DNA of 41,168 nucleotides from a phage. The translations under genes and the position numbers were made by a program. Within the stretch, counting starts at the first letter, position 1. Every line of letters begins with the position of its first letter. Location: NCBI GenBank assembly GCA_013027745.1, contig GCA_013027745.1_4329.1; one strand, 5' to 3'. The notes below the pieces were generated by a model, which made no database searches, was not told the DNA's origin, and was given only the letters and a program-made list of their open reading frames with translations. Positions 8,690-22,257 of the stretch are shown in pieces.

Positions 8690-8695
8690 TAAGAA

Positions 8696-8715: not shown

Positions 8716-8719
8716 AGTT

Positions 8720-9892
8720 TTATGCGTAGGTGATACGCTGGATAACAATAGACGACTGGTATTGGTTGCCGGTAGCCTGGCCTTCAATGGACTGAGTGAT
8801 TGACTCAGGTCCGCCAATCTCAGGCGTAACCGCCGTAAGTTCCGCACGTTTCAAACTGAAAGACATAGCACCATTTACCCCTGCCAGAATAGAGTTAATC
8901 TCTACCTGCTGTTCATTGATAAACTTCTGAATCATCGCCATGTCGTACAGCTTGCCGGAGATGGAGAAGGTGTTAGCCGCGCGACCTCGTTCCACGAACG
9001 CAACGCTGCTGTTGCCGAGTTCGAACTGAGCAGATGCGCCGTTGTCGTTGGTGATGGTCAGAGTATCGCAACGCAACGGCGTAGAACCGTCGAACACAGA
9101 CACATCTACAGAGGAGAACGGCTCATCAGTAAACGTCACCTGAGAGAAATCAGAACCTGCTGGCGGTGTGGAAAGAATTTCCTGACTCAGACCGATGAAC
9201 GGGAAGCTGCCTGTCACCATCGCGTTTACGGCCTGTTCAATGGTGAAACCGGAGATTTCCACGCCTTTGGTCAACATGTACGCGTCAGGGTTCCCGCACT
9301 GTCCTTTGAACCATGTCAGGATGGAGAACGTCTTACATGCGTTACCGGTTTCCAGTTTGTCGCCGGTTTTAGCGTCGGTGGTTACAGTCTCTGCTGTCAG
9401 CGTGTGCTGAATGCCCGCGCCCGTAACTACAAGAGCAGAAACCGCGGTCACGATAAACGGTTTTGCGTTGTCGCCGGTTAAGTCGGTGAACGCAATCAGG
9501 TCGCCAACTTCTACACCGTCGGTAATGAAGCTACCAGCGGCGCGGGTGAATGTTTTACCTGCGGGGGCGACCGTAATTTCTGCACCCGTAATCTCTACCC
9601 CATCCTGCCACGTAGATGTCATCGCACCAGCGAGGAAATCATCCTGACTACGGGAGCTAAGCTCAATGGCATACTCTCCGCTGACCTGCTTGTTACCAGT
9701 GCGGATGGACGTAGTTTCACGGCTGCCGTCCAGTTCGTTGGAGGTCAGCGCATCGCGGGTTACCGCAGGAACGCCGCCAGTGTTGCGCAACGGCGACCAT
9801 ACCGGGTTACTTGGTGTTACGCCCGGGGTCACTTCCGCCACATAGAATTGCGCGGTATTCGCGCCCTTAAAAGGAGTTGTAGCCATATTCAC
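8720..9892 (-). CDS. major tail protein
   Basis: 390 aa Thr/Gly/Ser-rich ORF upstream of the chaperone and tape-measure block; followed by a terminator. Confidence 0.6.
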   Translation of the reverse strand: MNMATTPFKGANTAQFYVAEVTPGVTPSNPVWSPLRNTGGVPAVTRDALTSNELDGSRETTSIRTGNKQVSGEYAIELSSRSQDDFLAGAMTSTWQDGVEITGAEITVAPAGKTFTRAAGSFITDGVEVGDLIAFTDLTGDNAKPFIVTAVSALVVTGAGIQHTLTAETVTTDAKTGDKLETGNACKTFSILTWFKGQCGNPDAYMLTKGVEISGFTIEQAVNAMVTGSFPFIGLSQEILSTPPAGSDFSQVTFTDEPFSSVDVSVFDGSTPLRCDTLTITNDNGASAQFELGNSSVAFVERGRAANTFSISGKLYDMAMIQKFINEQQVEINSILAGVNGAMSFSLKRAELTAVTPEIGGPESITQSIEGQATGNQYQSSIVIQRITYA

Positions 9893-10305
9893 AGCCTCTT
9901 GGTGAATGCAATAAAGTTAATTGACAATGGTCGTTTGGCCCATCCGTTTTCTACAATCAGTGGCCCCAGGCTAACCGATTGAACCTCGGCGCAGATGTCG
10001 TTACGTGAAAATGACTTACCTGCTTTAAACGCCGTGTTAAGTAAGTCTGCCATTTTATTGATTGGCGCGCTACCTTTCACCGATGCGTAGTTAATGTCGA
10101 CCTGATAAACACCTGAGCGTTGTTCCGTGAAGAACAAATCCGCCTGCTCCGTATCAGCGAGCAACATGTAACTTGCCAGATACGGGGTATTGGTTGACGT
10201 TGGCGCGTCGATGTTTTCAAGCGCAACCTTGATGCCGTTGGCGGTTCCGAACGATACCAGCGGCACGTCAAACGCTTTTGTTAAGTCCTCAAAGTAGCCC
10301 ATCAT
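9889..10305 (-). CDS. head-tail joining / tail completion protein
   Basis: 138 aa ORF, ATGA coupling, position between capsid and major tail genes. Confidence 0.5.
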   Translation of the reverse strand: MMGYFEDLTKAFDVPLVSFGTANGIKVALENIDAPTSTNTPYLASYMLLADTEQADLFFTEQRSGVYQVDINYASVKGSAPINKMADLLNTAFKAGKSFSRNDICAEVQSVSLGPLIVENGWAKRPLSINFIAFTKRL

Positions 10306-10697
10306 TTCACCTTGTTGGCTTCTTCGTTAATTAGTTGCTGGAAGCGAGACACGTTAGTCCTGACCATCCCGGCTGGGGCCTGTTGTGACCAACCGTACTC
10401 CAGCCGTTGCGCATACGGCAGGTTATTTGTCAGCGTGAACTCGCGCCCGTCAGCGGCTTTCAGTACGAAACTTGTAGCGTTTCCGATAGCTATATTTCCT
10501 GATTTATCCGTAGCGTCTGTAGTTCCGGAGGCAGGAGTCCCGCCAGACGCCATCCAGTTCATACGAAAGCGGCCTGTATCTACCGGACTCGCCTTTATGA
10601 TAGCGGAAAACAGTTTGATAGACACCTGACGCATCACTTTCTCAGGGTTCTTCTTCGCCTTTTCCACGAACTTAGAGACATCGAGCGCGAAACTCAT
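10302..10697 (-). CDS. head-tail joining protein
   Basis: 131 aa ORF in the neck module. Confidence 0.5.
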   Translation of the reverse strand: MSFALDVSKFVEKAKKNPEKVMRQVSIKLFSAIIKASPVDTGRFRMNWMASGGTPASGTTDATDKSGNIAIGNATSFVLKAADGREFTLTNNLPYAQRLEYGWSQQAPAGMVRTNVSRFQQLINEEANKVK

Positions 10698-11053
10698 TTT
10701 CTCACCTGGATAAAGTAGGCCACGACATCATCGTTAACCATCTTCTTCTCGATTGCTACGACAGACCATTGCTCGCCGCCGAATTGCACCTTGTCTTCCA
10801 TCTTCGGAACGACGCTGTAATCGGCTTTAACAATCATGTCGCCCGCCTGAATCGTCGTACCGTTTACCAGTCCCGCGTTTACCGGAACCGGAACGGCCCT
10901 CAACGGCAACACTTCATCGTCAGACCAGACGTGCTCACCGAGAACTTCATCCCACACTTTTGAGCCAGCGCGAACCAGAGATACCGTGCTGCCGAATTTG
11001 GTTAACAGGCGTGTACCCACGCCTTGCATACGTTTACTGAAAGCTGTGCTCAT
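10694..11053 (-). CDS. head-tail joining protein
   Basis: Likely start ATG at 11053 (MSTAFSK), overlapping the upstream stop by 1 nt (TAATG). Confidence 0.5.
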   Translation of the reverse strand: MSTAFSKRMQGVGTRLLTKFGSTVSLVRAGSKVWDEVLGEHVWSDDEVLPLRAVPVPVNAGLVNGTTIQAGDMIVKADYSVVPKMEDKVQFGGEQWSVVAIEKKMVNDDVVAYFIQVRK

Positions 11054-11667
11054 TACGCGGCCTCCAGTCTCGAAATAACCAGTAATGCGGGCGGTGCAGT
11101 ACCCCATGCAGTTACGGTCGCCGCTTGCGGGTATACACCACCGAAGTTGCTTCCTGCGCTATCTCGCATAATCTGAACGGCAAACGTCTGGCCTGCGGTT
11201 GGGTTAATAACGACGCGGGATTCAATCGGGATGGTCACGTCCGCGCTTACCAGCTTAGTTGCTGCGGGAGAGCCGTACTGAGCGCCATTAAGAAGAATCC
11301 GCGATAACAGGATGGACGTTCCGCTAGCACCCGTGCGACCTGCCTGTAACTTGATGCGAACGGCGTAGTTACCCGCGGGGTTGAACGTAACAAGCCCAGC
11401 GGCATTAATCATTACCGGGTCTGATGCACTTCCCTGAGCGGAGCCGAAAGTTAACTGCAGTGCCGTATCTGCTGCGGTTGGCGCTTGTGTTACTGTTGAT
11501 GCAGCGCGGAGAACTTCAACTTCTTTAACTCCTGGAGTGGCGTAGATAGGTGAGTCCGCCATCTGCGTCATTACTTCGCGTAACTTCGCGGGGGTAATAA
11601 GTCCGGTGGTGTTATCGGGGATGTTCGCACCGATAAGGGTGAACATCTCTGTTTTAGTTTTCGCCAT
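11053..11667 (-). CDS. virion structural protein
   Basis: 204 aa ORF in the neck module. Confidence 0.5.
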   Translation of the reverse strand: MAKTKTEMFTLIGANIPDNTTGLITPAKLREVMTQMADSPIYATPGVKEVEVLRAASTVTQAPTAADTALQLTFGSAQGSASDPVMINAAGLVTFNPAGNYAVRIKLQAGRTGASGTSILLSRILLNGAQYGSPAATKLVSADVTIPIESRVVINPTAGQTFAVQIMRDSAGSNFGGVYPQAATVTAWGTAPPALLVISRLEAA

Positions 11668-11669
11668 TT

Positions 11670-12182
11670 TTAACCCCGGTACACGTTAAACGAGAAGCCA
11701 TTGTTAAGACCCCCACACAGCAACGGGCGCAAGGCGTCGTCCGCAGCAGTAATAGCGGTAGTAGCCCCACTGCTGCCGTTGTTGAAGTATGTCACGGTCA
11801 CTGCACCCTCAACACGCTCGGTCTGCACAGAGCGCCCGTCTGAGTTGGCCCGCACTTCTGTACCCGCACCATATGTAACAGCGGCGATTACCTGCGCGAG
11901 AATTACCTGTTTCGGAATGACATTGTTTGCTACAGGGAACCCATTCAACGTCACCCCGGTACGAGGGTACGCCAGAGACTGTTCGGCGGATACACGGCGA
12001 CCGCACATCTGCGGCTCCGCAAGCCCGACATAAGTAGCGCCGTTGCGCAGAGCTACCTCTGCCGCGGTATCGTCTTCCGGCAGCTCAAGGCCATAATTAG
12101 CCGCTAACGCGCGGGCGTCCGCTAGTGAGATGTACGAATCAGCATTCGGGACGATTGCCCCCGTTTCCACGATTAGCGGCAT
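11670..12182 (-). CDS. virion structural protein (head-tail connector region)
   Basis: 170 aa ORF in the neck module. Confidence 0.5.
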   Translation of the reverse strand: MPLIVETGAIVPNADSYISLADARALAANYGLELPEDDTAAEVALRNGATYVGLAEPQMCGRRVSAEQSLAYPRTGVTLNGFPVANNVIPKQVILAQVIAAVTYGAGTEVRANSDGRSVQTERVEGAVTVTYFNNGSSGATTAITAADDALRPLLCGGLNNGFSFNVYRG

Positions 12183-12185
12183 AAA

Positions 12186-12365
12186 TTATTCCTCTGACTT
12201 ACGGCGACGACGCTTAGTACCACCACCGTTGTTGTGCGCTTCTTCGTTGTCCGGTTGGGTCGCAACCAGTTCATCCGCTTCTACAACACCGCGAACAGGC
12301 ATCACCTGACCGTCAACAACGTCAACGTGGGTGTACTTTTCGCGGATTACATAGTTATCTGCCAT
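12186..12365 (-). CDS. small basic-tailed protein
   Basis: Hand-translated 59 aa ORF (MADNYVIREKY...TKRRRRKSEE), SD aaggaaagg upstream; below the track size cutoff. Confidence 0.35.
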   Translation of the reverse strand: MADNYVIREKYTHVDVVDGQVMPVRGVVEADELVATQPDNEEAHNNGGGTKRRRRKSEE

Positions 12366-12401
12366 GACCTTTCCTTATTACGGCCCCGAAGGGCCGTTGT
12401 A

Positions 12402-12752
12402 TTAAGACACAGTTGCTACGGTGCTACTGGAGATAATATTACCATATACGTCGTGAACAACCACTTTATACGTACCGGAGTCGGTAGTAGCGAGTGAAGT
12501 TTTCTCGTAGGTGGTGGCGTTAGCTCCAGGGATAGCGTTGTTATCCTTGTACCACTGGTAAGAGTACGGCTCAAGGCCGCCAGTTACAACTACGGTAAGG
12601 GTCATCGTCTGCCCGGTAGACTTGGTAGTGGTGGCCGCAAGGGGGGTAGAGAAAGACGCTGGTGAGATATTTGCCATGTCGATTTCTACCTGACCATCAG
12701 CCGGGGAGTCGTCAGAAACACCGGTAATGCGACGTTTGATTACATCAACCAT
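12402..12752 (-). CDS. Ig-like domain protein (putative capsid decoration)
   Basis: C-terminal Ig-like signature YSYQWYKDN...DSGTYKVVVHD. Confidence 0.6.
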   Translation of the reverse strand: MVDVIKRRITGVSDDSPADGQVEIDMANISPASFSTPLAATTTKSTGQTMTLTVVVTGGLEPYSYQWYKDNNAIPGANATTYEKTSLATTDSGTYKVVVHDVYGNIISSSTVATVS

Positions 12753-12764
12753 TTTTAAGCTCCT

Positions 12765-13064
12765 TTAGCTTACAGTTCCTGCGTTTTTAAGCGCAGTCAA
12801 CAGATTTGCTACGGTAGTGCGCAGCGCGGTAACATCGGTTCGGAGTTTGTTGTACTCCGCCACAAGGGCGTCGAACTCTTCCTTAGTTGGAGCGGCGGCG
12901 GACTGCACCCCTGCACCAGCGGTAATGGCCGCGGGCGCGGCTACAGTAGCTGACTTTTTAACACCACCAACTACGCTGGTAGTAGCAGGCGTGACTGGGA
13001 TATCAAAGTCGCCGAAGTCGACATTCTGAAGGCTGCGCGGCAAGCCTTTTCCGGTCTTGGCCAT
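12765..13064 (-). CDS. small head-associated protein
   Basis: 99 aa Ala-rich ORF just downstream of the capsid gene; SD GAGGT. Confidence 0.5.
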   Translation of the reverse strand: MAKTGKGLPRSLQNVDFGDFDIPVTPATTSVVGGVKKSATVAAPAAITAGAGVQSAAAPTKEEFDALVAEYNKLRTDVTALRTTVANLLTALKNAGTVS

Positions 13065-13080
13065 AATTTACCTCTTAGTA

Positions 13081-13107
13081 AATGAAAAGAGGGACCGAAG
13101 TCCCTCT
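13081..13107 (-). terminator. rho-independent terminator after major capsid gene
   Basis: agagggac-cgaa-gtccctct hairpin; T-run on the minus strand. Confidence 0.6.
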
Positions 13108-13123
13108 CGATTATAGCTTAACC

Positions 13124-14173
13124 TTAAGCACCTACACCAGTTACCAGGAAGGCAATCGGCACGTGCTTACGGTCAACCACACGGTTCCAGTTGGAGGCGT
13201 TCGCCAGGTCCTGCCAGGAAGCGGAGCGTGCGACGGTCTCGGTGCCGTTGCCAGTGATTACTGCGCTGGTGAAGCTGTAGCCCAGTGGGTGCAGCAACCA
13301 GGTCTTACGGGTCCACAGGGTTTCTACACCACCGCCGTTGCCGCGAGACGCTTCACGTTCGTATTCCAGCGGGTTGGACGGGCTGCCTTCACCATAACCG
13401 ATAGCGCCGTTGCCGAAGATGATGGAGATGAACTTACGGCCCGGGCCAGTACCGACTACGGTCATGCTGTCGTCAACAATCACGCGGTAGCCCTGGTAGG
13501 TGGCGAACATGGTGTTGTTGTCGGCGTCGCGGATGAAGTCAATAAGCTGCTGCTTACGAGCCTGCGCATAAACGAAGCTGTGCATCGCGATAGCACCTAG
13601 CACTTCGCCGCCGTTGCCCATCAGCGCATCACCCATAGTCTGGGTAGCGTCGATGAATGCGCCGGAGTCGAAGCCCAGAGTAGCAGACACGTCGATTACC
13701 ATGTCGTTCTGCTCGTGGTATGCGTCGGTAGCAGCTACGTTGTCGTTGTACAGACCGAGCGCGGTAGCAATCAGACGGCGTTGCGCCTGACGCTGCCAGA
13801 AGTTATCCAGACGAGATGCCACGGATTGCAGAGGGTTCTGGCTGGTCAGTTCTACAGTCAGGTCTGCCTGACTGAAACCTTCGTTCAGATACGCAACGCG
13901 CGCCATCATCTCGCCGGTCTGCACGTTACGCGGGGTAGCGATGTCCTGATATACGTCGTTCGAGTAGTTTGGCTCGATAGAGGTATCAATCGCTTTCCAG
14001 AAAGGAATATTAGCGACGTTGGATGGGCCACGAGCAATCTCGGCAGCGTACGGAGTCGGGGTAAGGATACCAGACTGGAAGAACGCGGTTTTTTCTACCG
14101 GGTCCTCGGTCATGTAAGACGCCAGGACCGGGATGTTGCCAGTTACGATATCGCCGATAGTGGTAATTGCCAT
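13124..14173 (-). CDS. major capsid protein
   Basis: 349 aa ORF immediately downstream of the scaffold gene and followed by a terminator. Confidence 0.75.
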   Translation of the reverse strand: MAITTIGDIVTGNIPVLASYMTEDPVEKTAFFQSGILTPTPYAAEIARGPSNVANIPFWKAIDTSIEPNYSNDVYQDIATPRNVQTGEMMARVAYLNEGFSQADLTVELTSQNPLQSVASRLDNFWQRQAQRRLIATALGLYNDNVAATDAYHEQNDMVIDVSATLGFDSGAFIDATQTMGDALMGNGGEVLGAIAMHSFVYAQARKQQLIDFIRDADNNTMFATYQGYRVIVDDSMTVVGTGPGRKFISIIFGNGAIGYGEGSPSNPLEYEREASRGNGGGVETLWTRKTWLLHPLGYSFTSAVITGNGTETVARSASWQDLANASNWNRVVDRKHVPIAFLVTGVGA

Positions 14174-14175
14174 TA

Positions 14176-14877
14176 TTATTTCCTCAGGGCTTTAAGTTGC
14201 CGTTCAAATTCGGTAGGGTTCGATTTATACAGAGCTAAACGCTCCGCTTCGCTCATGTCTTTAAACGCTGGTGCGGCCCCGCCGCCTTTGCTACCGGAAG
14301 CCCCGCCGCCGGAAGCTGCATTTGCTTTAATCAAATGCGAAAACGCTTTGTGTTCACGCAGGTATTTGCGGAACTGTTCCGGGTCAGTCGTGATTACGTT
14401 GCCGTCTGCGCCGACAAACTTAGTAACCACGTCATCGCCTTCAAACTCAGTCTTAACGAACGGAGCCAGGATGTCCACTGCTTCCGGGGTGATAAAGTCA
14501 CCCGCGAAAGAGCCTAACACCGCTTTACGTTCGCTGCCGAGGATGCGCTCTGCCATTCTGGAGATGCGACCATCTTTCTCGGCTAACACCGGGTCATACT
14601 GGCTACGAATCGTTTTTTCGAACTCGTCCATCTTACCAGCGGCTTTTAACGCCTCCTGGTGTGCGCGCTGCCGTTCTTCTTCGGCCTCTTTTGCTTTGCG
14701 AGCGGCTTCTTTCTTCTCCGCCAGCAACGCTTCCTGATTAGCCTTAAGCCCGGCGACTTCTTTCTCAATCAGCGCCTGAACTTCTTCAGCGGTGAACATT
14801 TTCGGTGCGCCACCGCCACCGGCTTTATCTTCTGCCCCAGCTTCTTCCTGGAACGGATAACGTAAAAAACGATTCAT
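14176..14877 (-). CDS. scaffolding protein
   Basis: Charged Ala/Glu/Lys-rich helical protein directly upstream of the capsid gene; likely start MNRFLRY at 14877. Confidence 0.65.
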   Translation of the reverse strand: MNRFLRYPFQEEAGAEDKAGGGGAPKMFTAEEVQALIEKEVAGLKANQEALLAEKKEAARKAKEAEEERQRAHQEALKAAGKMDEFEKTIRSQYDPVLAEKDGRISRMAERILGSERKAVLGSFAGDFITPEAVDILAPFVKTEFEGDDVVTKFVGADGNVITTDPEQFRKYLREHKAFSHLIKANAASGGGASGSKGGGAAPAFKDMSEAERLALYKSNPTEFERQLKALRK

Positions 14878-14959
14878 AGTCAGTATGTCCCCTGGACGTT
14901 GGAACCCGGGCCACCCGGATTTACATGTCAAGAATAAATTATTCCAACATGCAAGGCAA

Positions 14960-15223
14960 CTATTCCAGAATATTCCTCACGTAATCCTGCAACATGAACA
15001 CTTTCAGTCTCAGTTGCCGTACGCATTCGGCGTTCTGAACGTCGATAGCCAAATCCTCGTCCGCGTCGCTACTTGGCGGTGCCAGCTTGCACGGCGGCTG
15101 CATCATTGTCGTATCCGGGGATGGAATTGGCGTTGGTGACGGCGCGGGACTTGAGCAGGACGCGAGCATCGTCGAAAGTGCACACGCTGCGGCCAGGCGT
15201 TTTAATGTACTTAACGACTTCAC
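14960..15223 (-). CDS. o-spanin (Rz1-like lipoprotein)
   Basis: Signal peptide with lipobox LASC, proline-rich body; starts inside the i-spanin gene in another frame and runs past its stop. Confidence 0.6.
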   Translation of the reverse strand: MKSLSTLKRLAAACALSTMLASCSSPAPSPTPIPSPDTTMMQPPCKLAPPSSDADEDLAIDVQNAECVRQLRLKVFMLQDYVRNILE

Positions 15224-15455
15224 GGGTAATTACCTCTGATTTCGTCTTGCCTTCGTTGTCAGCGGCTGCGGCCTTTGATTCGTCCTGCTGCTGCCGTTGT
15301 GTTTTCTTCGCTAACTCAGCCTGTGCTTTCTGCTGTTGCTGCGAAACGAGATTCGCCCGGCCTTCGTTCCAGCCGCTGCGGTACTGATAGATGCCGTGTG
15401 CGTAAGCCAGGATGATGAAACATGCTCCCGCTACGACAGTTGCTTTAAGATTCAT
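15069..15455 (-). CDS. i-spanin (Rz-like)
   Basis: N-terminal TM helix then charged coiled-coil region; overlapping partner lipoprotein ORF. Confidence 0.6.
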   Translation of the reverse strand: MNLKATVVAGACFIILAYAHGIYQYRSGWNEGRANLVSQQQQKAQAELAKKTQRQQQDESKAAAADNEGKTKSEVITREVVKYIKTPGRSVCTFDDARVLLKSRAVTNANSIPGYDNDAAAVQAGTAK

Positions 15456-15565
15456 GTTTCTCCTTTCTCGATAAGTAAAGCCCCGCCATAAAGCGGGGCG
15501 CTAGTCCTTATCATTTAAACATAGAAACGGCGTAATCTCAGTAAACCAGTTACTTTTTACACAAG

Positions 15566-15712
15566 CAATAGAGTATGGCCCTTCCGAACGCGTCAGCGTA
15601 ACTACACTCAGGACTTACGTCCCGCTCCGTTACCTGCCCGCGCCGCGGTCGCTTGTTCATACTTCACAAGCTCAGGTGGAGCTTAGCACATTTTTAGTGA
15701 AAAGTCAACTAT
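15566..15712. repeat. ~147 bp intergenic repeat, copy A (copy B at 28382-28529)
   Basis: Conserved 5' block (caatagaNtatggcccttccgaa) and 3' block; 34 nt identical core ccgcggtcgcttgttcatacttcacaagctcagg at 15643-15676. Confidence 0.7.
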
Positions 15713-15774
15713 TCGAATAGTTTATTCCAACATTTACAATTCGGTGGAATAACTGGAATGGGTAAATAAATAGT

Positions 15775-15803
15775 TTGCGTACCCCAACATAATAGGGTAC
15801 TAT
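15775..15803 (+). promoter_or_regulatory. sigma70-like promoter, class I, with operator palindrome
   Basis: TTGCGT-N17-TACTAT; accccaacataatagggtactattca; drives the 15831 moron. Confidence 0.55.
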
Positions 15804-15830
15804 TCAGTTAACTTAAACAGGAGGTGTAAA

Positions 15831-16115
15831 ATGACACACAAATTTAAAGGTACAGACGGTGAATGGGTTAATCGTGGAACGGCTATCTGGGCGGGTGATG
15901 TTTATGTGGCGGAGGTAATGAGTATGCGGGAGAAGGCCTCAGTGAAATTGGCTAACGCAAAACTTATTTCCTCAGCACCTGAATTAATTGAAGCCCTTCG
16001 CCAGCTTCGCGATTACGTTGAGGATGTTTGTGTAGTATCCCCTGAGGATTGTCATAAGGACCACCCATTAAATCTGGCAAACAGAGCAATCGAGAAAGCA
16101 TTAGGAAAGAAATAA
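15831..16115 (+). CDS. hypothetical protein (moron with own promoter and terminator)
   Basis: 94 aa ORF, SD aggagg, opposite orientation to the surrounding head genes. Confidence 0.55.
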   Translation: MTHKFKGTDGEWVNRGTAIWAGDVYVAEVMSMREKASVKLANAKLISSAPELIEALRQLRDYVEDVCVVSPEDCHKDHPLNLANRAIEKALGKK

Positions 16116-16119
16116 AACT

Positions 16120-16140
16120 AAGGCCCCGTAATGGGGCCTT
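16120..16140. terminator. bidirectional rho-independent terminator (conserved cassette copy 2, inverted)
   Basis: aaggcccc-gtaat-ggggcctt followed by tttta. Confidence 0.7.
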
Positions 16141-16143
16141 TTA

Positions 16144-16605
16144 TCATTCGGGCTTAGTGACCTTCGCCGCTTTACTTACGGCCTCTACACCATCGGCATC
16201 GGTGACTTTAACGAAGTATTCACCTGCTGCATTAACCGTCAGAGACAAAGCCTCTTCAGGGGCGTTGACCACTTCCTTACCGTCTTTGTACCAGGTCAGA
16301 GCATACGGCGCTTTACCGGCCTTAACTTCGACAGTGATAGTTGCGTTGCCGTCCGTCAGTTCGGCGTCTTTTGGTTGTACGGAGAAATATACATCGCCTG
16401 CGTCCGCCAGATACGGAATCTCGTAAAGCATACCCGCTGCGGGTAGTGCAATACCGGTTTTATCTGCAAAAGGCATGTCGTCTACTGGTGTACCTAGTAC
16501 ACTTTCGTCCCCAATAGACACCACGTTCTCACCGGAGCCAGACACACGAGCAAACTGGACTACACGACGTGAAGGCACATCAGTTACTTTGAAAAAGCCC
16601 ATCAT
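16144..16605 (-). CDS. Ig-like domain protein (putative virion decoration)
   Basis: C-terminal Ig-like signature YALTWYKDGKEV...GEYFVKVTDADG. Confidence 0.55.
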   Translation of the reverse strand: MMGFFKVTDVPSRRVVQFARVSGSGENVVSIGDESVLGTPVDDMPFADKTGIALPAAGMLYEIPYLADAGDVYFSVQPKDAELTDGNATITVEVKAGKAPYALTWYKDGKEVVNAPEEALSLTVNAAGEYFVKVTDADGVEAVSKAAKVTKPE

Positions 16606-18496
16606 TAACCCCTTTCAGATAATCAGCGACACGTTTATCGAGTTCCGCCATCTGCTTAAGCGTGAGCGGATTCCCGAAACCATCTACAGATATTACGCGA
16701 AACTCTTCCGGCGATATACCGCTGTTGCGGAAAATCTTACCACGAACAGGGCCGAGGGCCTGGTCCTGGAACCATGCAGGTTGTTGTTTCAGGAACTCGT
16801 AATAGGTTGTGTCCGCGCTTACCTGAGTGCCGCCGTCCGCGCCCTTAGCCGCGCGTTTTGCGCCTTTATCTAGGAAATCGAACTCTGAGCTGATTACGGG
16901 TGCGGTTGTGGAGCGACAGTTATGTGCTATAATTCCATTTGCAAGATACCAGTTCTGTTCATTTTCGAGGTTATAAACATGCCCGCAAAAATCAGCTTCA
17001 CTAAAGACCAAATCGACAACATCATCAAGCTCTACGCCGACGGCATCGGACCAGTTGAAATCGGAAAGATTATCGGCGTTTCGTGCAGCCCAGTTATACG
17101 CGTTCTCAGAGAGAACGGCGTTAGGATCCGCGGCGGCAGCGACGCTATGTTTATCAGAATGGCTAAAGCTACTCCTGAGGAGCGCCTCGCTCTCTCCGCC
17201 GCGGCGCATGAAGCTGTCCGAGGGAGAAAGGCCGACCATGCTGAACTGCTTCGCAGAGCCAAAGCCAGGGAGGGAGTCATCAACGCCGGCAGTCACTGGG
17301 AGTTCCTTGTCAATGATTTGCTTATTCAGACCGGACTTGACTTTATTCCAGGAAAGGCGGTCGACAAGTATAATCTCGACTTCGCCGTCGGTTCCGTCGC
17401 CGTGGAAGTCTTCGGGGGAGGTTGGGCTTGTACTGACCGCCGCCGGATTGACCGCTACATTAGCCGCACTAAACAAATCGGAGAACTTGGCTACAACGTT
17501 GTGTTCCTTATGCTTGAGAGAGAGCGCAGAGTCCTTAGCGCACACGAGCTTGTCGCCTATATTGAGAAGGCCGGAAGCAACCCAACCACGGGCAGTCAAT
17601 ACCTGGTGGTTTGGGGTGATAGACAAGGTGCGACCGGACTTTGTAGAGACATAGACTATAGGGCCTTTGTACGTCCGTTTAAAAATGTTAGAAACAGGGC
17701 TACCGGTAGATACTACAGTGTCCCCAAGTAAGCAATTAGGATGGGCCGGAGGCATCGGCCCTTTACCGATTTCCCACGTCATCCCGTCCCTGGCTCTGCA
17801 AATCGTGCTGGTACGGCTGTCCAGCGTTGACACCCACTCGTACTTCTCAATGATATCGTCGTTCTGGCGGTACGTCTCGTTACGGGCTTCGTTGGATACG
17901 TGGGACAGCGCGGTGCGAATTACCGTAGCCGCGTTACGTTCAGAGATGTCCGCCAGCCCACCGGCACCAACAACATTCTTAACAATCTGCCGTGTTGTCT
18001 GGCCTTGTACGAAACCCATCTTAACGCCAGTTACCAGGCGCGCGACCTCCGCTTCGCCCCAGCCAGACATCAGTTTAGTGAAGTCAACAGGCTTGTCGCT
18101 TAACGATAGGGGTTGAAACTCGGCAGCAGACCACACCTGCTCAGCGGTCGGGATAACAAATTCAGCGTTGACGTTAGCCGTGAGTGTTTTCACATTCCAC
18201 TCAGCCTCATACGCTGCCAGTTCCTTAAGGTCTTCGGTCAGCTTTGTTTGCCAGTCTCCGGCTAGCCCTGTCAGTGCTTCTTCTAAGTCGCGTAACAGTT
18301 TATTGAGACGCGCGGTGCTTCTCCCGTCGTCGCCGAACAACAGCACCTGCCGTTTGATTTCATCCCGCATCTCCTGAATGAACGGTGCGAGGTCTTTCAC
18401 TTCGCCAGATGCGTTGCGTTGCAGCCAAATCTGGTGGCTGATTAGTGATGTCAGTAAGCTCATAAATAAACCCTGTGGCGCTAAAGTTAATAGCAT
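16580..18496 (-). CDS. head morphogenesis protein (MuF/SPP1 gp7-like) containing an intein
   Basis: 638 aa ORF between portal and scaffold; conserved AHPN-C site split by a Hint domain; predicted spliced product about 366 aa. Confidence 0.8.
   Translation of the reverse strand: MLLTLAPQGLFMSLLTSLISHQIWLQRNASGEVKDLAPFIQEMRDEIKRQVLLFGDDGRSTARLNKLLRDLEEALTGLAGDWQTKLTEDLKELAAYEAEWNVKTLTANVNAEFVIPTAEQVWSAAEFQPLSLSDKPVDFTKLMSGWGEAEVARLVTGVKMGFVQGQTTRQIVKNVVGAGGLADISERNAATVIRTALSHVSNEARNETYRQNDDIIEKYEWVSTLDSRTSTICRARDGMTWEIGKGPMPPAHPNCLLGDTVVSTGSPVSNIFKRTYKGPIVYVSTKSGRTLSITPNHQVLTARGWVASGLLNIGDKLVCAKDSALSLKHKEHNVVAKFSDLFSAANVAVNPAAVSTSPTSPEDFHGDGTDGEVEIILVDRLSWNKVKSGLNKQIIDKELPVTAGVDDSLPGFGSAKQFSMVGLSPSDSFMRRGGESEALLRSSFSHSDKHSVAAAADPNAVLSENAYNWAARNADNLSDFNWSDAVGVELDDVVDLVFSEADFCGHVYNLENEQNWYLANGIIAHNCRSTTAPVISSEFDFLDKGAKRAAKGADGGTQVSADTTYYEFLKQQPAWFQDQALGPVRGKIFRNSGISPEEFRVISVDGFGNPLTLKQMAELDKRVADYLKGVNDGLFQSN
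16919..17734 (-). mobile_element. intein (Hint domain, 272 aa, residues 255-526 of the host protein)
   Basis: Block A CLLGDTVV, block B GRTLSITPNHQVLT, blocks F/G VYNLENEQNWYLANGIIAHN followed by +1 Cys; no in-frame LAGLIDADG/HNH motif seen in the central region. Confidence 0.8.
16979..17731 (+). CDS. HTH plus PD-(D/E)xK (Vsr/DUF559-like) endonuclease-like protein encoded antisense inside the intein
   Basis: 250 codons from ATG 16979 (GAGGT SD 7 nt upstream) to TAA 17729-17731; HTH IGPVEIGKIIGVSCSPVIRVLRENG; core YNLDFAVGSVAVEVFGGGW...DRRRIDRY...GELGYNVVF. Confidence 0.5.
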   Translation: MPAKISFTKDQIDNIIKLYADGIGPVEIGKIIGVSCSPVIRVLRENGVRIRGGSDAMFIRMAKATPEERLALSAAAHEAVRGRKADHAELLRRAKAREGVINAGSHWEFLVNDLLIQTGLDFIPGKAVDKYNLDFAVGSVAVEVFGGGWACTDRRRIDRYISRTKQIGELGYNVVFLMLERERRVLSAHELVAYIEKAGSNPTTGSQYLVVWGDRQGATGLCRDIDYRAFVRPFKNVRNRATGRYYSVPK

Positions 18497-18506
18497 ACTA
18501 TAAGAA

Positions 18507-18522
18507 AGCCCCTTTCGGGGCT
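18507..18522 (-). promoter_or_regulatory. intercistronic hairpin between portal and head morphogenesis genes
   Basis: agcccc-tttc-ggggct stem-loop followed by a weak T-rich tract on the minus strand. Confidence 0.35.
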
Positions 18523-18532
18523 ACAGGTGAAC

Positions 18533-20014
18533 TTATTGCTGAGTGGCGTCCTGCTGTTGCGCCGACTGCGGAATATCGCCAGTTACCTGAGTAACAGCGC
18601 CTAACGGCACAGGTGCGTCCTCAATCGCCGTTGTAATCTCCTCGTCGGTCCAGTCAGTTACCCCGGCCTTACGCAGCGCGGAGTAGTAGGCGGTTGCTGG
18701 CAGTAAACCAGCGTTAATGTCTGCCATCCACTGTGCGCGGTCTTGCGCCGTCATCGGTTGCAGGAAGAACTCCATGTTCAGCTTGAACTCAATTTCCGTG
18801 CCTTCGCGCAAGCCCAGCATAGCAGCCACCCAACGCAACGCCTCTGTGTATGCCATGCTTACGTTACGCGCAATGGTTGCCATTACGGATGTATCAGCGC
18901 CACGTTGCAGGCGGGCTGATTCAGCGGTAATCTGCTGCGTCGGCGTGATAAGCTGCGCACCAATCTGGATGGCCTGATTCTCTTTATCCAGCATGTTCTG
19001 TTTGGCGAGGTTGTTCTCTCCGGCCTGAACCAGAAACGCATTGCCGCCGTAACCGATGTTATGGCCTGAGCGCGACCCCATGCGCACGCCGTGAGGGTTG
19101 GCTTCCGCCCACTGTTCCATGCTCATGTTCTCGCCCGGGGCAATAAACAGAGTCGGCTGGCCTACGACAAAGCTGGATTCCTCATTATCTGCGCTGTTGC
19201 GGAAATGCCCAATATTAAGCTCCGCCAACGGCAGCAAAGGGGCGTCGTCGATAGTAGCGTCGTTGTTGCTTGCGCCAATGAACGTGAACGGGATTTTGCC
19301 GCGTAACTGTTCGCCGAGTTCCGGGAAGATTTCGATTACTTCGTCCTGAGCGCCACCCTCGGCATCGAAGCGGTAAATGCGCTGGCGGTAGCGACCATCA
19401 ATCAGGTCGAGGACACGATATTGCTCACCGAACTTGGTTTCGAACTCTGCACCAGGTTCTGAGTATTCCCATACTTCGCGCAACACTACCATCGTAACGC
19501 GGTTAACAGAACCCACGCGAGTGAGTCGCCAGTTGATGATATTCTCTGCAGTATAGAATGCAATGACCGGGTTTAATAACCCAGCGTTCTGTTCGGCTGC
19601 CGTTGCTGCGGCTGTCTCCGGCGCATCCACCAGCAGCCCACCACGACCTACTGAGTCAATTTCCATAAGCGTATCCTGCGCGTGCTGCCACAGGCCGACA
19701 CCAGAGCCATCTGCATTGCGCAACAGGTACTCCAGTTCAGGCGGAATAATCTGTTCAGGGTCTTTGCGCATCACCGACCCAACCATCCCCGCCAGGGTAC
19801 GTTTGGTGAAGTTGTAGCAGATAGCGCCGTTCTCGTATTCTTCCTGGCGCTGCGCCGCGTAGGTAGGGTCAGGCTCGTTCTTCCCGACATTGCGCAGATA
19901 ACGAATAAGGTCGCCTTCCAGCGCATGACGTACCTTCTGCCATTTATCGAAGTGATGCAGCCATTCCCGGTGTTTTGTCTTAACACCCTGATTCTGACCG
20001 TTCATAGTTAACAT
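18533..20014 (-). CDS. portal protein
   Basis: 493 aa ORF immediately downstream of the terminase large subunit and upstream of the MuF-like gene. Confidence 0.75.
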   Translation of the reverse strand: MLTMNGQNQGVKTKHREWLHHFDKWQKVRHALEGDLIRYLRNVGKNEPDPTYAAQRQEEYENGAICYNFTKRTLAGMVGSVMRKDPEQIIPPELEYLLRNADGSGVGLWQHAQDTLMEIDSVGRGGLLVDAPETAAATAAEQNAGLLNPVIAFYTAENIINWRLTRVGSVNRVTMVVLREVWEYSEPGAEFETKFGEQYRVLDLIDGRYRQRIYRFDAEGGAQDEVIEIFPELGEQLRGKIPFTFIGASNNDATIDDAPLLPLAELNIGHFRNSADNEESSFVVGQPTLFIAPGENMSMEQWAEANPHGVRMGSRSGHNIGYGGNAFLVQAGENNLAKQNMLDKENQAIQIGAQLITPTQQITAESARLQRGADTSVMATIARNVSMAYTEALRWVAAMLGLREGTEIEFKLNMEFFLQPMTAQDRAQWMADINAGLLPATAYYSALRKAGVTDWTDEEITTAIEDAPVPLGAVTQVTGDIPQSAQQQDATQQ

Positions 20015-20026
20015 TGAATAATCCTC

Positions 20027-21277
20027 TTAAAGTGCGAAAGTCACCGGGATGTTGATTACTGGTTTAACCACCGGCATCTCGTAAACTACAGGATAGCCGA
20101 GAGCATCCGCCATATGGTCGATGATGCCGTCTTTGGACGGCTCCCCGTTATCGTCGTAAGCCTGCTGCTCCAGCGTCTTGGCTATCTCAGGGCATAAGTG
20201 GTCGTTAACCCACAGCTTACCTTTTTCCAGCGCTGTATTCACGGCCAAAACACGGTCTTTAACCGGGGGGTTGGCAGATTTAGCGCGAACATCGAACCCG
20301 GCCTGCTGGAGTAACGCAATATCAGAGATTGACGCCGAGTTGGTTTTGCGGTTCTTGCCACTTGCGTCAGGGTAAACGACGATGCGGTGACCTTGCGACT
20401 TCCACTTCTCGGTAATTACGCGCACGGTGTCCGGCGTATCGAACAGGCCTTTCAGTTCTGCCACCGCGTGCCAGCCGTCTTTACGCTGCACATACACGGC
20501 GCTGGCGTTCTTCGTAACGTTGAAGTCCTGCCCGATGTACAGCGTGTCGCCAGGTTGAATTGTCTCTTTGCTGCGGTGCTTACGGCGGTCGTACGCGTAA
20601 TACACGCTGCCGGATGTCAGGTTGACGAACTCACCGTTCAGATATGCGTTAATCAACTGCGCCGGGTAAGTCTCTGTCAGCGAGCTAATGTAATCCGGCG
20701 GCAGGAATCGCGCGTTCTCATGAGTTGATGCCTGCACCATCGAGTAGCTCGGCGTCGGATTCTCTTTGAACTTGGCGTAGACGAACTTGAACCCTTCCGG
20801 CGTCGTGGTTACAGAGATGTGGTTGGTTACGCCAGGAATAACAAGACGCATACGGGCTACGATTTTGTTCCACGCCAGCTCAGCTTTCTCGCGGCTCAAT
20901 ACGTCCAGCTCATCCACGACCGCCGCGGCGATTTTGAAGCCGACGATAGAGCCGGGGTTATCCATCGAACGGCAGATAACTGTCCCCAGCACTGTCTTAC
21001 CGCGAGTAACCACGACTTCTTTGTCGCCGGATTTAACCAGCACATCAAGGCCGAGCAGGTTAGCTGCTTCCTCGAATGTCGGGTAGAAGATGTCACGGAT
21101 AGCGGGGTATGTGGGGCCGAAGTAGCCCAGGCGCGTACCGGGGTGCTTGAGCATGAACGTAAGCAGGTCCAGACAGCCGACAAATGTCTTGCCGCTGCCG
21201 AAGCCCCCGACATAGGCTTTATATTTGTTATCGCAATTCAGGAACAACGCCTGTGGTGCGGATAGCTGGATACTCAT
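20027..21277 (-). CDS. terminase large subunit
   Basis: Walker A GGFGSGKT near the N-terminus; size and position typical. Confidence 0.85.
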   Translation of the reverse strand: MSIQLSAPQALFLNCDNKYKAYVGGFGSGKTFVGCLDLLTFMLKHPGTRLGYFGPTYPAIRDIFYPTFEEAANLLGLDVLVKSGDKEVVVTRGKTVLGTVICRSMDNPGSIVGFKIAAAVVDELDVLSREKAELAWNKIVARMRLVIPGVTNHISVTTTPEGFKFVYAKFKENPTPSYSMVQASTHENARFLPPDYISSLTETYPAQLINAYLNGEFVNLTSGSVYYAYDRRKHRSKETIQPGDTLYIGQDFNVTKNASAVYVQRKDGWHAVAELKGLFDTPDTVRVITEKWKSQGHRIVVYPDASGKNRKTNSASISDIALLQQAGFDVRAKSANPPVKDRVLAVNTALEKGKLWVNDHLCPEIAKTLEQQAYDDNGEPSKDGIIDHMADALGYPVVYEMPVVKPVINIPVTFAL

Positions 21278-21819
21278 TCCTCTACCTCACCCATGTTCGT
21301 TGTTACGATTTTACCTACAGGCTCCGCGACACTGAAAATAATCTCAGTCGGTGCTGTTTCTTCGGCGGATTCAACCGGTTTCTCTTTGCTGAGGCCCAGC
21401 TTAGCCGCAGCGAAGGTAGCAGAGATACCCGCCGCGCCTGTCTCAGTGAAGTATGCCTCTTCCAGCGCCTGTGCGGTCTCCCAGGCTTCTGCAAATGCGG
21501 GAATCTCGCGCAGCCACAGCTTAATAATCGGGATAGTGACGCCGATGTGTAAGGCGAAGCGGGCCAGTGACGGTGGCTTATCCTGAATCAGCGGGCGTTC
21601 GTCACCCTTAGACGTAGGCACAAGTTCCCACGACGTGCGGTCGAAGAATCGAATCAATTCGTCGCAATAGTCCGGGTCCCACAACGCGGCGGAATTACGG
21701 GATGATTGATAAAGGCTCTGTTTGCCGCGCGGTCGTCTACGGCGGCGGTTTGCACTAACAGCTTCTTCATGTGCAGCTTGCACCACCTCTGGCGATGGCT
21801 GCTTGAGTTTCAGCTTCAT
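21274..21819 (-). CDS. terminase small subunit
   Basis: HTH-like segment ARFALHIGVT...LWLREIPAFAEAWETAQALEEAYF; ATGA overlap with TerL; likely start MKLKLKQ at 21819. Confidence 0.7.
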   Translation of the reverse strand: MKLKLKQPSPEVVQAAHEEAVSANRRRRRPRGKQSLYQSSRNSAALWDPDYCDELIRFFDRTSWELVPTSKGDERPLIQDKPPSLARFALHIGVTIPIIKLWLREIPAFAEAWETAQALEEAYFTETGAAGISATFAAAKLGLSKEKPVESAEETAPTEIIFSVAEPVGKIVTTNMGEVEE

Positions 21820-21916
21820 AGAATCCCCTTGCATATGCGTCTGACCATCAGAGCGCACCAGACGCGCCCTACGCGTCTAAAGGGATTATATAAGGGGATT
21901 GGGCGGGATGTACAGA

Positions 21917-21938
21917 AAAGCCCTCCGTAGAGGGCTTT
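21917..21938. terminator. rho-independent terminator upstream of the terminase operon
   Basis: aaagccctc-cgta-gagggcttt followed by ttg on plus and ttc on minus. Confidence 0.6.
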
Positions 21939-22038
21939 TGTCAGTTATATAGGCCATGTCGGGGTGCTCTTTTACCATCACCGCCGTAGTGGTCGTTAGC
22001 TACGGCGATAGCCCAGGCGTTTGGTATGATTAGTAGTC

Positions 22039-22257
22039 TCATATATGTTCCAGTGATTCTCTCCAGTCTGTATCTTGGTTCTCTACACACCCGAGGCATT
22101 GTACTTCTCCATACTCGCTCGACCACACCCATTCAAGACCCTCGATAACGGGTTCGTACTCGAAGCCGTACACGGCCCCGTCTTCATCCGTGGCAACATA
22201 GTTTATATTATCCCACACATGAAAATGTTTACCTTTATATTCTATAGTACGACTCAT
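22039..22257 (-). CDS. hypothetical protein
   Basis: 72 aa ORF, last gene of a translationally coupled small-gene operon. Confidence 0.45.
   Translation of the reverse strand: MSRTIEYKGKHFHVWDNINYVATDEDGAVYGFEYEPVIEGLEWVWSSEYGEVQCLGCVENQDTDWRESLEHI

Follow-up and report, generated by a model that had tools for sequence, protein, structure and literature searches.

Question raised by the spanin locus

The window analysed here, a 41,168-nt stretch of phage DNA, is that of a Kagunavirus-like (Guernseyvirinae) siphophage. Its spanin genes lie among the head genes, far from the holins and the endolysin, within a 1.2-kb segment that also holds a promoter, a repeated element, a moron and a terminator. 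This raises the question whether the spanins came in as an inserted island, as an earlier note on this DNA had suggested, or whether they belong to the ancestral layout of the genome. To judge from sequence comparison, the joint explanation that we consider highly probable is that of Jersey-family spanins in a conserved place, next to palindromic regulator sites and within an island built of three layers.

The spanin gene pair

Two overlapping genes were assigned to the pair:

15069-15455, minus strand: i-spanin (Rz-like), 128 aa, with an N-terminal transmembrane domain (TMD) at residues 5-23 and a periplasmic Cys92
14960-15223, minus strand: precursor of the o-spanin (Rz1-like) lipoprotein, 87 aa, with a GTG start

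The hydrophobicity of the i-spanin peaked at residues 5-23 (Kyte-Doolittle 19-mer maximum 1.72), which corresponds to a single N-terminal TMD of a type II protein; Q, E, K, R and A account for 47% of its periplasmic part, a figure that describes composition and does not predict helicity. The ribosome-binding site of this frame is AAGGAG, and a GAGG site is found 8 nt upstream of the GTG start of the o-spanin. The o-spanin precursor carries a signal peptide and a lipobox, LAS followed by Cys23, with MKSLSTLKRLAAACALSTMLAS before the junction and CSS after it. Its +2 residue is Ser and not Asp, so that sorting to the outer membrane is predicted. The mature protein contains 10 Pro in 65 residues, and Cys is present at positions 45 and 67. 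The o-spanin gene runs in the +1 frame, overlaps the i-spanin gene by 155 bp and extends beyond it, as in the overlapped class of spanins. The i-spanin matched phrog_2536 ('Rz-like spanin') with E=2e-55, and the o-spanin matched two 'Rz-like spanin' families, phrog_5672 (4.5e-30) and phrog_1267 (1.4e-18). TMD, LASC lipobox, Pro content, reading frame and PHROG matches all bear out the Rz-like i-spanin and overlapping Rz1-like lipoprotein that the earlier note had proposed.

A tblastn search returned 627 records with a match, K1ind2, SE2 and SO-1 among them. The i-spanin is 92-94% identical to those of K1ind2 and Schulenburg and about 64% to that of SE2, with partial similarity to Dhillonvirus. 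Signal peptide and lipobox Cys of the o-spanin are kept in SE2, Smarc3, 37P2 and Bas84, and the long, lipobox-bearing form is kept across five lineages. The published 'Jersey' i-/o-spanin family comprises Jersey, SETP3, SE2, K1G, K1H, K1ind1-3, HK578, EP23, JL1 and SO-1 and is characterized by the overlapped architecture, an overlap of 155 bp and conserved o-spanin Cys45 and Cys67 (Kongari et al. 2018, PMC6139136). The present pair shares this overlap and both Cys residues and differs from the family in nothing essential. By these sequence features it is a two-component spanin and a further member of the Jersey family, both of its proteins being homologous to the spanins of Jersey, K1G and HK578.

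In many GenBank records the annotated o-spanin is just 48 aa long, a 3' fragment. That form has no lipobox and therefore cannot be a lipoprotein.

Place among the head genes and distance from the lysis cassette

The spanin genes sit between the scaffold gene (14176-14877) and a Hoc/Ig-like gene (16144-16605), as the earlier note had placed them, and about 8.7 kb from the lysis genes:

24198-25234, minus strand: lysis cassette, with a holin/antiholin (24926-25234), a second holin (24661 to about 24942) and a GH24 endolysin (24198 to about 24701)

The endolysin matched the Phage_lysozyme family, and two terminators follow the cassette. The same note had described a holin, a second membrane protein and a GH24 endolysin ahead of two terminators, some 9 kb away; this description holds, and the second membrane protein can be named a holin.

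The order MuF-(Hoc)-Rz/Rz1-scaffold is common to Kagunavirus, Jerseyvirus, Cornellvirus, the Serratia and Klebsiella relatives and Dhillonvirus. Homologous spanins thus occupy the same MuF/Hoc-scaffold slot in three Guernseyvirinae genera, in the Serratia/Klebsiella relatives and in Dhillonvirus, a separate genus; no Guernseyvirinae or Dhillonvirus genome examined had the slot empty. Holin and endolysin always lie elsewhere, in Guernseyvirinae and Dhillonvirus upstream of the terminase. In Dhillonvirus the i-spanin gene overlaps the MuF stop codon and is without any promoter of its own. Among the relatives compared, the scaffold gene directly follows MuF, the arrangement that the earlier note had proposed for comparison, only in the distant Shewanella phage 3/49, where no room is left for spanins. 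The G+C content of the spanin genes (54%) equals that of the neighbouring head genes (53-57%), and the moron cassette alone is low (43%). Because the same gene order recurs across genera, the place of the spanins among the head genes is, on comparative grounds, an ancestral layout and no recent insertion.

Palindromic repeats and the moron slot

The sequence GAATANNTTATTCCAACAT occurs exactly twice in the window, where 0.17 occurrences are expected by chance and 1 of 100 shuffles reached two:

15715-15733: repeat copy 1, palindrome core GGAATA-AAC-TATTC, 6 bp upstream of the -35 element of promoter P_A
14932-14950: repeat copy 2, palindrome core GGAATA-ATT-TATTC, between the o-spanin and scaffold genes, a probable protein-binding site

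More TATTCC half-sites are present at 15737-15760. In Jerseyvirus the repeat shrinks at both sites to the palindrome GGAATA-N3-TATTC and its flanks have diverged. A core that is kept while the flanks drift behaves as a conserved binding site and not as a target-site duplication, and these palindromes are probably bound by a dimeric phage regulator. A scaffold-gene promoter at the second palindrome was considered and rejected: an acceptable -10 element is missing for the TTGACA at 14925-14930, and Jerseyvirus does not conserve this hexamer. A small hairpin shared by Kagunavirus and Jerseyvirus lies shortly before the ribosome-binding site of the scaffold gene:

14906-14918, minus strand: hairpin CCGGG-TGG-CCCGG

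On the other side of the spanins, three elements form a slot on the opposite strand:

15775-15804, plus strand: 'class I' promoter of the moron, with TTGCGT and TACTAT 17 nt apart and an overlapping operator, AATAG-N4-CTATT
15831-16115, plus strand: moron ORF, 94 aa, phrog_1273 (unknown function), variable
16120-16140: bidirectional intrinsic terminator, closing the Hoc-like gene and the moron

The operator, for which the consensus tgAATAGTa-ccTATTat has been published, has 8 perfect sites in the window versus 0.95 expected. The body of the moron ORF was found in only 3 other loci, in one of which (EF2-1) it lies between MuF and portal. The ORF is swapped between a conserved operator-promoter and a terminator, and the opposite-strand slot is hypervariable.

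Promoter P_A and a structured leader RNA

Between the first palindrome and the i-spanin gene lie a promoter-like sequence and a leader, of which a second copy opens the minus-strand unit with the holins and the endolysin:

15680-15708, minus strand: putative sigma-70 promoter P_A (TTGACT, 17 nt, TG-n-TAAGCT; extended -10)
15563-15679, minus strand: structured core of the leader RNA (copy A), with hairpin P1, a long irregular hairpin P2-P6 and the invariant UUCGGAAGGGCC
15480-15499, minus strand: terminator-like hairpin, rich in G+C, with which the leader ends on its 3' side; it forms the tip of a longer stem that is conserved
28380-28527, minus strand: copy B, promoter and leader core

The -35 element, the TG and the TA..CT of P_A are kept in Kagunavirus, Jerseyvirus and Cornellvirus. 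A simple consensus promoter scan does not call P_A, which we infer to be a promoter from its conservation only. Promoter and core together cover 15563-15708 in copy A and 28380-28527 in copy B. The covariance model scored 144.8 bits for the core of copy A and 96 bits for copy B, the latter being followed by a class I promoter and a hairpin at 28297-28311. Minus-strand transcripts would be predicted to start near 15673 and 28492, with 3' ends near 15478 and 28295.

The conservation of the leader reached 95-99% where neighbouring genes had diverged far more; in Salmonella phage S120 it is 95% identical, versus 77% for the adjacent i-spanin gene. Pairing was found in 90.2% of cells, compared to 30-45% when the structure was slid, and 10 pairs had changed on both sides, counts that come from related sequences in an alignment fitted to the structure. 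Pair 38/100, for example, is CG in 10 sequences, UA in 10 and unpaired in none. The structure was given to the covariance model by hand after a plain MAFFT alignment had misaligned the inner helices, and RNAalifold on that alignment recovered only the closing stem. Folding-energy z-scores of -1.0 to -1.7 were unremarkable and not significant alone. In the long 3' stem, CCCCGC/GCGGGG is replaced by CCCTGC/GCAGGG, and its outer helix, which pairs with bases that separate the Shine-Dalgarno sequence from the AUG of the i-spanin, reads GUUUCU/AGAAAC in Kagunavirus versus GUAU/AUAC in Jerseyvirus. The leader tolerates 1-nt indels, and a 36-aa ORF within it is broken by such indels and a premature stop; copy B has the ORF only in broken form and Jerseyvirus lacks it, which argues against coding. 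The leader of about 190 nt is, by this pattern of change, a structured, non-coding RNA. In database records, a 36-aa 'hypothetical protein' upstream of the i-spanin falls within it.

Rfam gave nothing credible, for the whole window at the gathering threshold or for both leader copies at E<=10, and a blastn search of 5,426 E. coli genomes with the leader as query gave no match. ARAGORN found no tRNA or tmRNA; the record of phage SGP007 annotates a 'tRNA-Ser' in the same intergenic region. In Cornellvirus the leader model had a marginal match of 11.9 bits at the expected place, and palindrome, promoter and the motif GGAAGGGTC could be recognized by eye. In Klebsiella 37P2 and Serratia Smarc3 the spanins are preceded by other sequences.

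Possible roles of the promoter-leader module

The leader may be a stand-alone small RNA gene of about 190 nt, or a 5' UTR that stabilizes the transcript or damps its translation, with read-through of the transcript from the upstream head genes as the main source of spanin expression. We regard this as possible, if on the doubtful side. It is in line with the leader's own promoter and terminal hairpin, with the 3' stem that would sequester the bases separating the Shine-Dalgarno sequence from the i-spanin AUG and shows compensatory changes between genera, and with the promoterless homologous spanins of Dhillonvirus. Read-through would however have to pass the strong bidirectional terminator at 16120-16140 between the spanins and the upstream genes, and a small RNA has no known target or partner here, nor a homologue in the E. 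coli genomes.

Rather tentatively, promoter and leader may be put forward as an undescribed class of cis-regulatory RNA of the Guernseyvirinae, which would set late and lysis gene expression, by processive antitermination or by gating of the i-spanin ribosome-binding site, and would couple the split lysis genes together with the flanking GGAATA-N3-TATTC operators. In the present phage the same type of promoter plus leader opens two units, that of the spanin, scaffold and capsid genes and the long minus-strand one with holin and endolysin; the leader at the latter is a paralogue carried by Kagunavirus. Papers on transcription or antitermination in these phages were not found in a literature search.

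The more specific idea of a cis-acting processive antitermination RNA, of the type of HK022 put or the lambda pR'-6S-tR' late leader, seems unlikely to us. Polymerase starting at P_A (and, in Kagunavirus, at P_B) would become terminator-resistant, carry expression through the late and lysis units with their many terminators and so co-regulate the split lysis genes. Each copy does combine a strong-looking promoter, a two-stem-loop RNA, a terminator-like hairpin and a long operon with several internal terminators (18507-18522, 16120-16140, 13087-13108, 8696-8715 and 6183-6206), and one of the two copies precedes each unit that bears lysis genes; the very high sequence conservation and the covarying base pairs fit as well. 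The known systems likewise have a promoter and a structured or terminated leader of about 100-200 nt before lysis or late genes, and HK022 carries two copies per genome, putL and putR, but neither sequence nor structure of the HK022 or lambda late leader matches the leader found here. At the put regions of HK022 the covariance model was without a match, the best score in the immunity region being 8.4 bits (E 0.5), and Rfam was equally negative. Copy B was not found in Jerseyvirus SE2 within 1-19,800 and 19,800-27,171. Moreover, the U-tract is weak in Jerseyvirus and paired inside the longer stem that reaches the ribosome-binding region, which would fit translational control or RNA processing better. 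A homology with HK022 was rejected, as the sole weak match of the leader model (14 bits) was a chance P1-like hairpin in pR' promoter DNA.

The 1.2-kb island as a composite

Repeat copy A, the class I promoter, the plus-strand moron and the terminator are all present where the earlier note had listed them. The 1.2-kb 'island' they form with the spanins is nevertheless a composite of three layers of different age and not one inserted element. The first layer would be the ancestral spanins. A Guernseyvirinae-specific promoter (TTGACT, 17 nt, TGnTAAGCT) and the leader, whose terminal hairpin reaches the i-spanin ribosome-binding region, would make up the second. The third would be the swappable moron slot between its conserved operator-promoter and bidirectional terminator. 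The two 19-bp repeats would be copies of the palindromic site, the first preceding the promoter and the second following the spanins.

The earlier note had suggested a modular insertion, flanked by a direct repeat of about 20 bp, and a separation in time of envelope disruption from holin and endolysin expression. On this model the spanins would have arrived in a mobile island with the repeat as target-site duplication, and their relocation would bring about that separation. We consider this very improbable. A repeat with only two copies in the window exists, the moron part is mobile and low in G+C, and Shewanella phage 3/49 lacks spanins at this place. The copy at 15715-15733 however lies about 410 bp inside the island, so that the pair brackets a 783-bp unit of promoter, leader and spanins and not 1.2 kb. 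Both copies are palindromes maintained at the same positions across genera with diverged flanks, homologous spanins fill the slot in Kagunavirus, Jerseyvirus, Cornellvirus, the Serratia and Klebsiella relatives and Dhillonvirus, no break in G+C content sets the spanins apart, and the same type of promoter and leader heads the holin/endolysin unit. Of the flanking repeat, its existence stands and its place at the island edge does not; modular insertion of the spanins was not borne out, and the mobile-island model is largely refuted by synteny.

From what is established on spanins, a separate timing is not required, because they are inert until the endolysin has removed the peptidoglycan. By analogy with lambda Rz/Rz1, the C-termini of i- and o-spanin would join to form a complex across the periplasm, which would build up during late gene expression and be kept inactive by the peptidoglycan mesh. 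The outer membrane would be disrupted or fused only once the endolysin released by the holin had degraded the wall. The holin would thus set the timing of lysis and leave the spanin genes free to sit anywhere in a late transcription unit.

That the two ORFs are unrelated small membrane proteins or chance ORFs is scarcely credible: Pfam offered no family for either protein at E<=0.01, lambda Rz/Rz1 models included, and the literature searched gave no experimental data on the family, but every sequence-level hallmark of spanins is present and both frames are kept in more than 600 phage records.

Comparison with other spanin systems and wider bearing

The Jersey-family pair described here resembles lambda Rz/Rz1 and P2 LysB/LysC in combining an inner-membrane type II protein with an outer-membrane lipoprotein whose gene uses the +1 frame of the same stretch, and in its presumed function, disruption of the outer membrane after wall degradation; homology at the Pfam level was not detected. 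The overlapped arrangement, as opposed to the embedded one, is also that of P2 LysB/LysC (Kongari et al. 2018). The lambda and P2 spanins lie inside the lysis cassette, whereas those of the present phage belong to the head module, at a distance of about 9 kb. The spanin genes of T4 (pseT.3/pseT.2) and T7 (18.5/18.7) do not adjoin holin and endolysin either, and the T4 precedent has been noted explicitly (PMC6139136). These belong to a different family with a separated architecture, and the T4 genes are not among head genes.

The spanin finding itself carries little weight. Family, overlapped architecture and the split from holin and endolysin are already known, the last having been stated before in genome papers, and hundreds of annotated genomes share the layout. 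What the locus adds is a correction to databases, in that the o-spanin starts at the GTG and includes the lipobox, and the upstream 36-aa protein lies in a non-coding RNA. It also defines a regulatory module, of palindromic operators, promoter and structured leader, at the start of the spanin-scaffold-capsid unit, which makes late-gene control testable in phages that depend on the host polymerase, are virulent and are widely used in therapy and biocontrol. The leader RNA is an uncharacterised side lead from the spanin locus.

Outside the spanin finding, a gene for a Vsr-like homing endonuclease appears to be encoded antisense (16979-17731) inside the intein of the neighbouring MuF gene, an intein that the MuF allele of Bas76, for one, lacks. 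Within the window, this antisense gene is perhaps more unusual than the spanins.

Spanin genes and their genomic context

A megablast search with positions 14000-17000 matched 492 phage records. Because Kagunavirus and Escherichia phages were the best of these (93-98% identity), with several hundred Salmonella Jersey-like phages also among the matches, the phage can be classed as a Kagunavirus-like member of the Guernseyvirinae. The gene order, taken from the annotation of the window and of the annotated relative Schulenburg, starts on the minus strand with an early/middle block that ends in holin-holin-endolysin, continues with small genes, terminase, portal, MuF, a Hoc-like gene and the spanin region, and closes with scaffold, major capsid protein and tail genes. 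Holins, GH24 endolysin and the two terminators behind the endolysin all lie at the places given in the earlier note, whose description is largely correct. The spanin genes are the following.

15069-15455, minus strand: i-spanin, 128 aa, single hydrophobic N-terminal segment at residues 5-23
14960-15223, minus strand: o-spanin, GTG start 8 nt after GAGG

Both ORFs matched PHROG spanin families strongly. The i-spanin ATG is preceded by an AAGGAG site, and beyond the N-terminal segment Q, E, K, R and A are abundant. Read in the +1 frame, the o-spanin gene shares 155 bp with that of the i-spanin. The o-spanin N-terminus, MKSLSTLKRLAAACALSTMLAS/CSS..., is a lipoprotein signal that includes a lipobox; residue +2 is Ser. 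Prolines make up 15% of the mature part, and the precursor has cysteines at positions 45 and 67. A signal peptide and lipobox cysteine were present in this frame in all spanin-bearing lineages examined. The family matches, the transmembrane segment, the lipobox and the +1-frame overlap bear out the assignment as spanins made in the earlier note, and the analysis shows a predicted inner-membrane protein and a predicted outer-membrane lipoprotein, whose overlapping genes open the scaffold-capsid transcription unit.

Many GenBank records (EF2-1, Bas76, Schulenburg, SE2) show only a 3' fragment of 47-48 aa as the annotated o-spanin (14960-15106). This short form is without signal peptide and lipobox; the conserved form is the GTG-started one of 87 aa (14960-15223).

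The spanin arrangement is one already described, to which the window adds another member. Kongari et al. 2018 (PMC6139136) defined a 'Jersey' spanin family comprising Jersey, SETP3, SE2, K1G, K1H, K1ind1-3, HK578, EP23, JL1 and SO-1, with overlapped genes, a 155-bp overlap and invariant o-spanin Cys45 and Cys67, exactly the values of the spanins studied here. Spanins are likewise split from holin and endolysin in the Golestan and fBC-Eco01 papers, and those of T4 are unlinked to e and t (Kongari et al. 2018, PMC6139136).

Insertion or inherited position

The earlier note had interpreted 14932-16143 as an inserted 1.2-kb island flanked by a direct repeat. Homologous spanins occupy the equivalent slot in other Kagunaviruses, Jerseyvirus SE2, Cornellvirus FSL SP-031, Serratia phage Smarc3, Klebsiella phage 37P2 and the Dhillonvirus Bas84, of a genus outside the Guernseyvirinae. 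Bas84, whose i-spanin overlaps the MuF stop codon, likewise has its holins and endolysin upstream of the terminase. A comparison with relatives in which scaffold follows MuF had been proposed as a check. Such a relative exists, Shewanella phage 3/49, with scaffold 325 nt after MuF, but it is the only case found and a distant one, the nearer relatives carrying spanins. Because the slot is filled across lineages and the MuF-then-scaffold order occurs only in this distant phage, the position among the head genes is old and stably inherited. The G+C content of the spanins (54%) is like that of the head genes (scaffold 53%, capsid 57%). Together with the nature of the repeat, a conserved palindrome, these observations do not support an insertion.

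14932-14950: first copy of the 19-bp repeat
15715-15733: second copy of the 19-bp repeat

The repeat itself is real, with exactly two occurrences in the window, but its second copy lies inside the proposed island, about 410 bp from the right edge. Both copies contain the palindrome GGAATA-N3-TATTC (minus-strand reading). In Jerseyvirus the palindrome is found at both equivalent positions within different flanking bases (ATTCAGGAATACTTTATTCAAAAAG vs AAGTGGAATAATTTATTCTTGTTAC), in Cornellvirus it is present too, upstream of the spanins, and extra TATTCC half-sites occur near it. On this pattern the conserved element is the palindrome and not a duplicated target, and the two copies are most simply read as putative sites bound by a dimeric regulator. 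One palindrome lies upstream of P_A, the promoter of repeat copy A, 6 bp from its -35 element; the other has the o-spanin stop on one side and, on the other, a small conserved hairpin that precedes the ribosome-binding site of the scaffold gene.

A promoter-leader module upstream of the spanins

15563-15708, minus strand: repeat copy A, putative promoter P_A and leader core
28380-28527, minus strand: repeat copy B, with promoter P_B
15478-15550, minus strand: stem of about 70 nt before the i-spanin, with the 'terminator' as its tip

On the minus strand copy A reads TTGACT, 17 nt, TG-n-TAAGCT. Next come a transcribed region and, 10 nt short of the ribosome-binding site of the i-spanin, a hairpin rich in G+C. 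Copy B, which has a hairpin of its own and then a class I promoter (one overlapped by the operator AATAG-N4-CTATT) after it, heads a minus-strand unit that ends in the holins and endolysin. As to the temporal separation of spanin and holin/endolysin expression conjectured in the earlier note, class I promoters do lie nearer the lysis cassette (26800-26835 and 28205-28235), yet in this phage the P_A/P_B promoter-leader type heads both the spanin unit and the holin/endolysin unit. Copy A occurs in Kagunavirus and Jerseyvirus and, in a diverged form, in Cornellvirus. Copy B occurs in Kagunavirus, including a diverged copy in Schulenburg, and was not found in SE2 1-19,800 and 19,800-27,171. The module is unusually conserved: in Salmonella phage S120 it is 95% identical, the adjacent i-spanin only 77%.

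Several observations indicate that the leader is structured. Three leader types with different sequences have one architecture: a hairpin at the 5' end, then a long irregular hairpin with the closing helices CCG/CGG and GG(C/U)GCG/CGC(G/A)UU, and finally a tail, UUCGGAAGGGCC, that does not vary. In the alignment, which was fitted to the model and consists of related sequences, 90% of cells pair, compared with 30-45% for slid partners, and in ten pairs both partners are changed. At one closing pair 10 sequences have C-G, 10 have U-A and none is unpaired. Folding-energy z-scores were weak. Rfam holds no family for the leader, no E. coli homologue was found, and the leader model did not match the HK022 put regions. 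A weak 14-bit match in the HK022 pR' region (36886-36959 of the comparison DNA), a hairpin over the late-promoter -10, was judged a chance likeness to helix P1.

A 36-aa 'hypothetical protein' ORF (15550-15660, minus strand) is annotated inside the leader RNA in several relatives (Schulenburg, Bas76). It has an early stop in copy B and no start codon in Jerseyvirus; because such stops or the 1-nt insertions and deletions seen in relatives break the other copies, it is probably not a gene. The same features indicate that the transcribed part of the module is non-coding. A 'tRNA-Ser' is likewise annotated between the Hoc and spanin genes of Salmonella phage SGP007 (316-394 of the comparison DNA); ARAGORN found no tRNA anywhere in the window.

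The 'terminator' is the tip of a stem of about 70 nt, whose middle and outer helices covary between genera (middle, GAUAAG/CUUAUC vs UAUACG/CGUAUA; outer, GUUUCU/AGAAAC in Kagunavirus vs GUAU/AUAC in Jerseyvirus). The bases that separate the Shine-Dalgarno sequence from the i-spanin AUG are paired in the outer helix, and the stem may damp translation or serve as a processing site. The leader might act in antitermination, gate the ribosome-binding site, take part in stabilising or processing the mRNA, or be a separate small RNA. We prefer a cis-regulatory 5' leader to a put-like role, since in Jerseyvirus the 'terminator' has a weak U-tract, which is paired within the longer stem.

By analogy with work on lambda Rz/Rz1, the spanin complex would span the periplasm, accumulate during late expression and act only after holin-released endolysin has removed the peptidoglycan, in which case the distance from the holin would be mechanistically irrelevant.

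Moron slot and operator

The repeat copy A, promoter, plus-strand moron and terminator listed in the earlier note are all real; the promoter bears an operator, and the terminator is bidirectional. Of 15740-16150, most relatives share only the first ~94 nt (the promoter with its AATAG-N4-CTATT operator, and a ribosome-binding site) and the last ~40 nt (the terminator), and the ORF between varies by genome.

ORF in the moron slot
This window (15831-16115, plus strand): 94-aa phrog_1273 protein
Schulenburg: sliding-clamp-like gene
FSL SP-031: PAPS reductase
Bas76, E2010: other small ORFs
EF2-1, SE2: none

In EF2-1 the moron ORF of the window, with promoter and terminator, is located between MuF and portal (4839-5213 of the comparison DNA). 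This relocation and the variation of the slot fit cassette exchange via recombination at the conserved regulatory ends.

The operator has 8 perfect sites in the window and 10 at ≤1 mismatch (0.95 expected). It matches a published 7-copy motif credited in that paper to a 'phage RNA polymerase'; no gene for such a polymerase was evident in the annotated relative Schulenburg. The operator overlaps the -10 element of at least seven promoters on both strands (6882, 15791, 26804, 28199, 31790, 34599 and 38247, plus weaker sites).

An ORF antisense to the MuF intein

16580-18496, minus strand: MuF gene
16919-17734, minus strand: 272-aa intein within MuF, CLLGD...IIAHN/C
16922-17731, plus strand: ORF exactly coextensive and codon-aligned with the intein, probable start at 16979

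Substitutions in the intein relative to three relatives (84/23/63, 41/12/28 and 23/4/10 at sense codon positions 1/2/3) peak at sense position 1, which is antisense position 3, whereas those in the extein peak at sense position 3 (e.g. 70/45/193). In every distant comparison the antisense protein was better conserved than the sense intein (Gordonia, 36% vs 27%; Vibrio, 40% vs 35%; the Haemophilus phage Aaphi23, 30% vs 22%; Salmonella ZS, 76% vs 65%). All tblastn matches lie opposite MuF genes. Homologues have an HTH at the N-terminus and match REase_MTES_1575 and DUF559 (Vsr-like nucleases) at sub-threshold to near-threshold levels. Because of these four features, we suggest that the antisense ORF is a real gene for a candidate HTH and Vsr/DUF559-like homing endonuclease. 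In a marine contig a longer intein is paired with a correspondingly longer antisense ORF.

Members of this nuclease family are known as free-standing homing endonucleases encoded on the same strand, between the halves of split inteins (Dassa 2009), whereas here the nuclease would be nested antisense. We found no published description of an antisense-nested intein endonuclease, and this one merits study in its own right.
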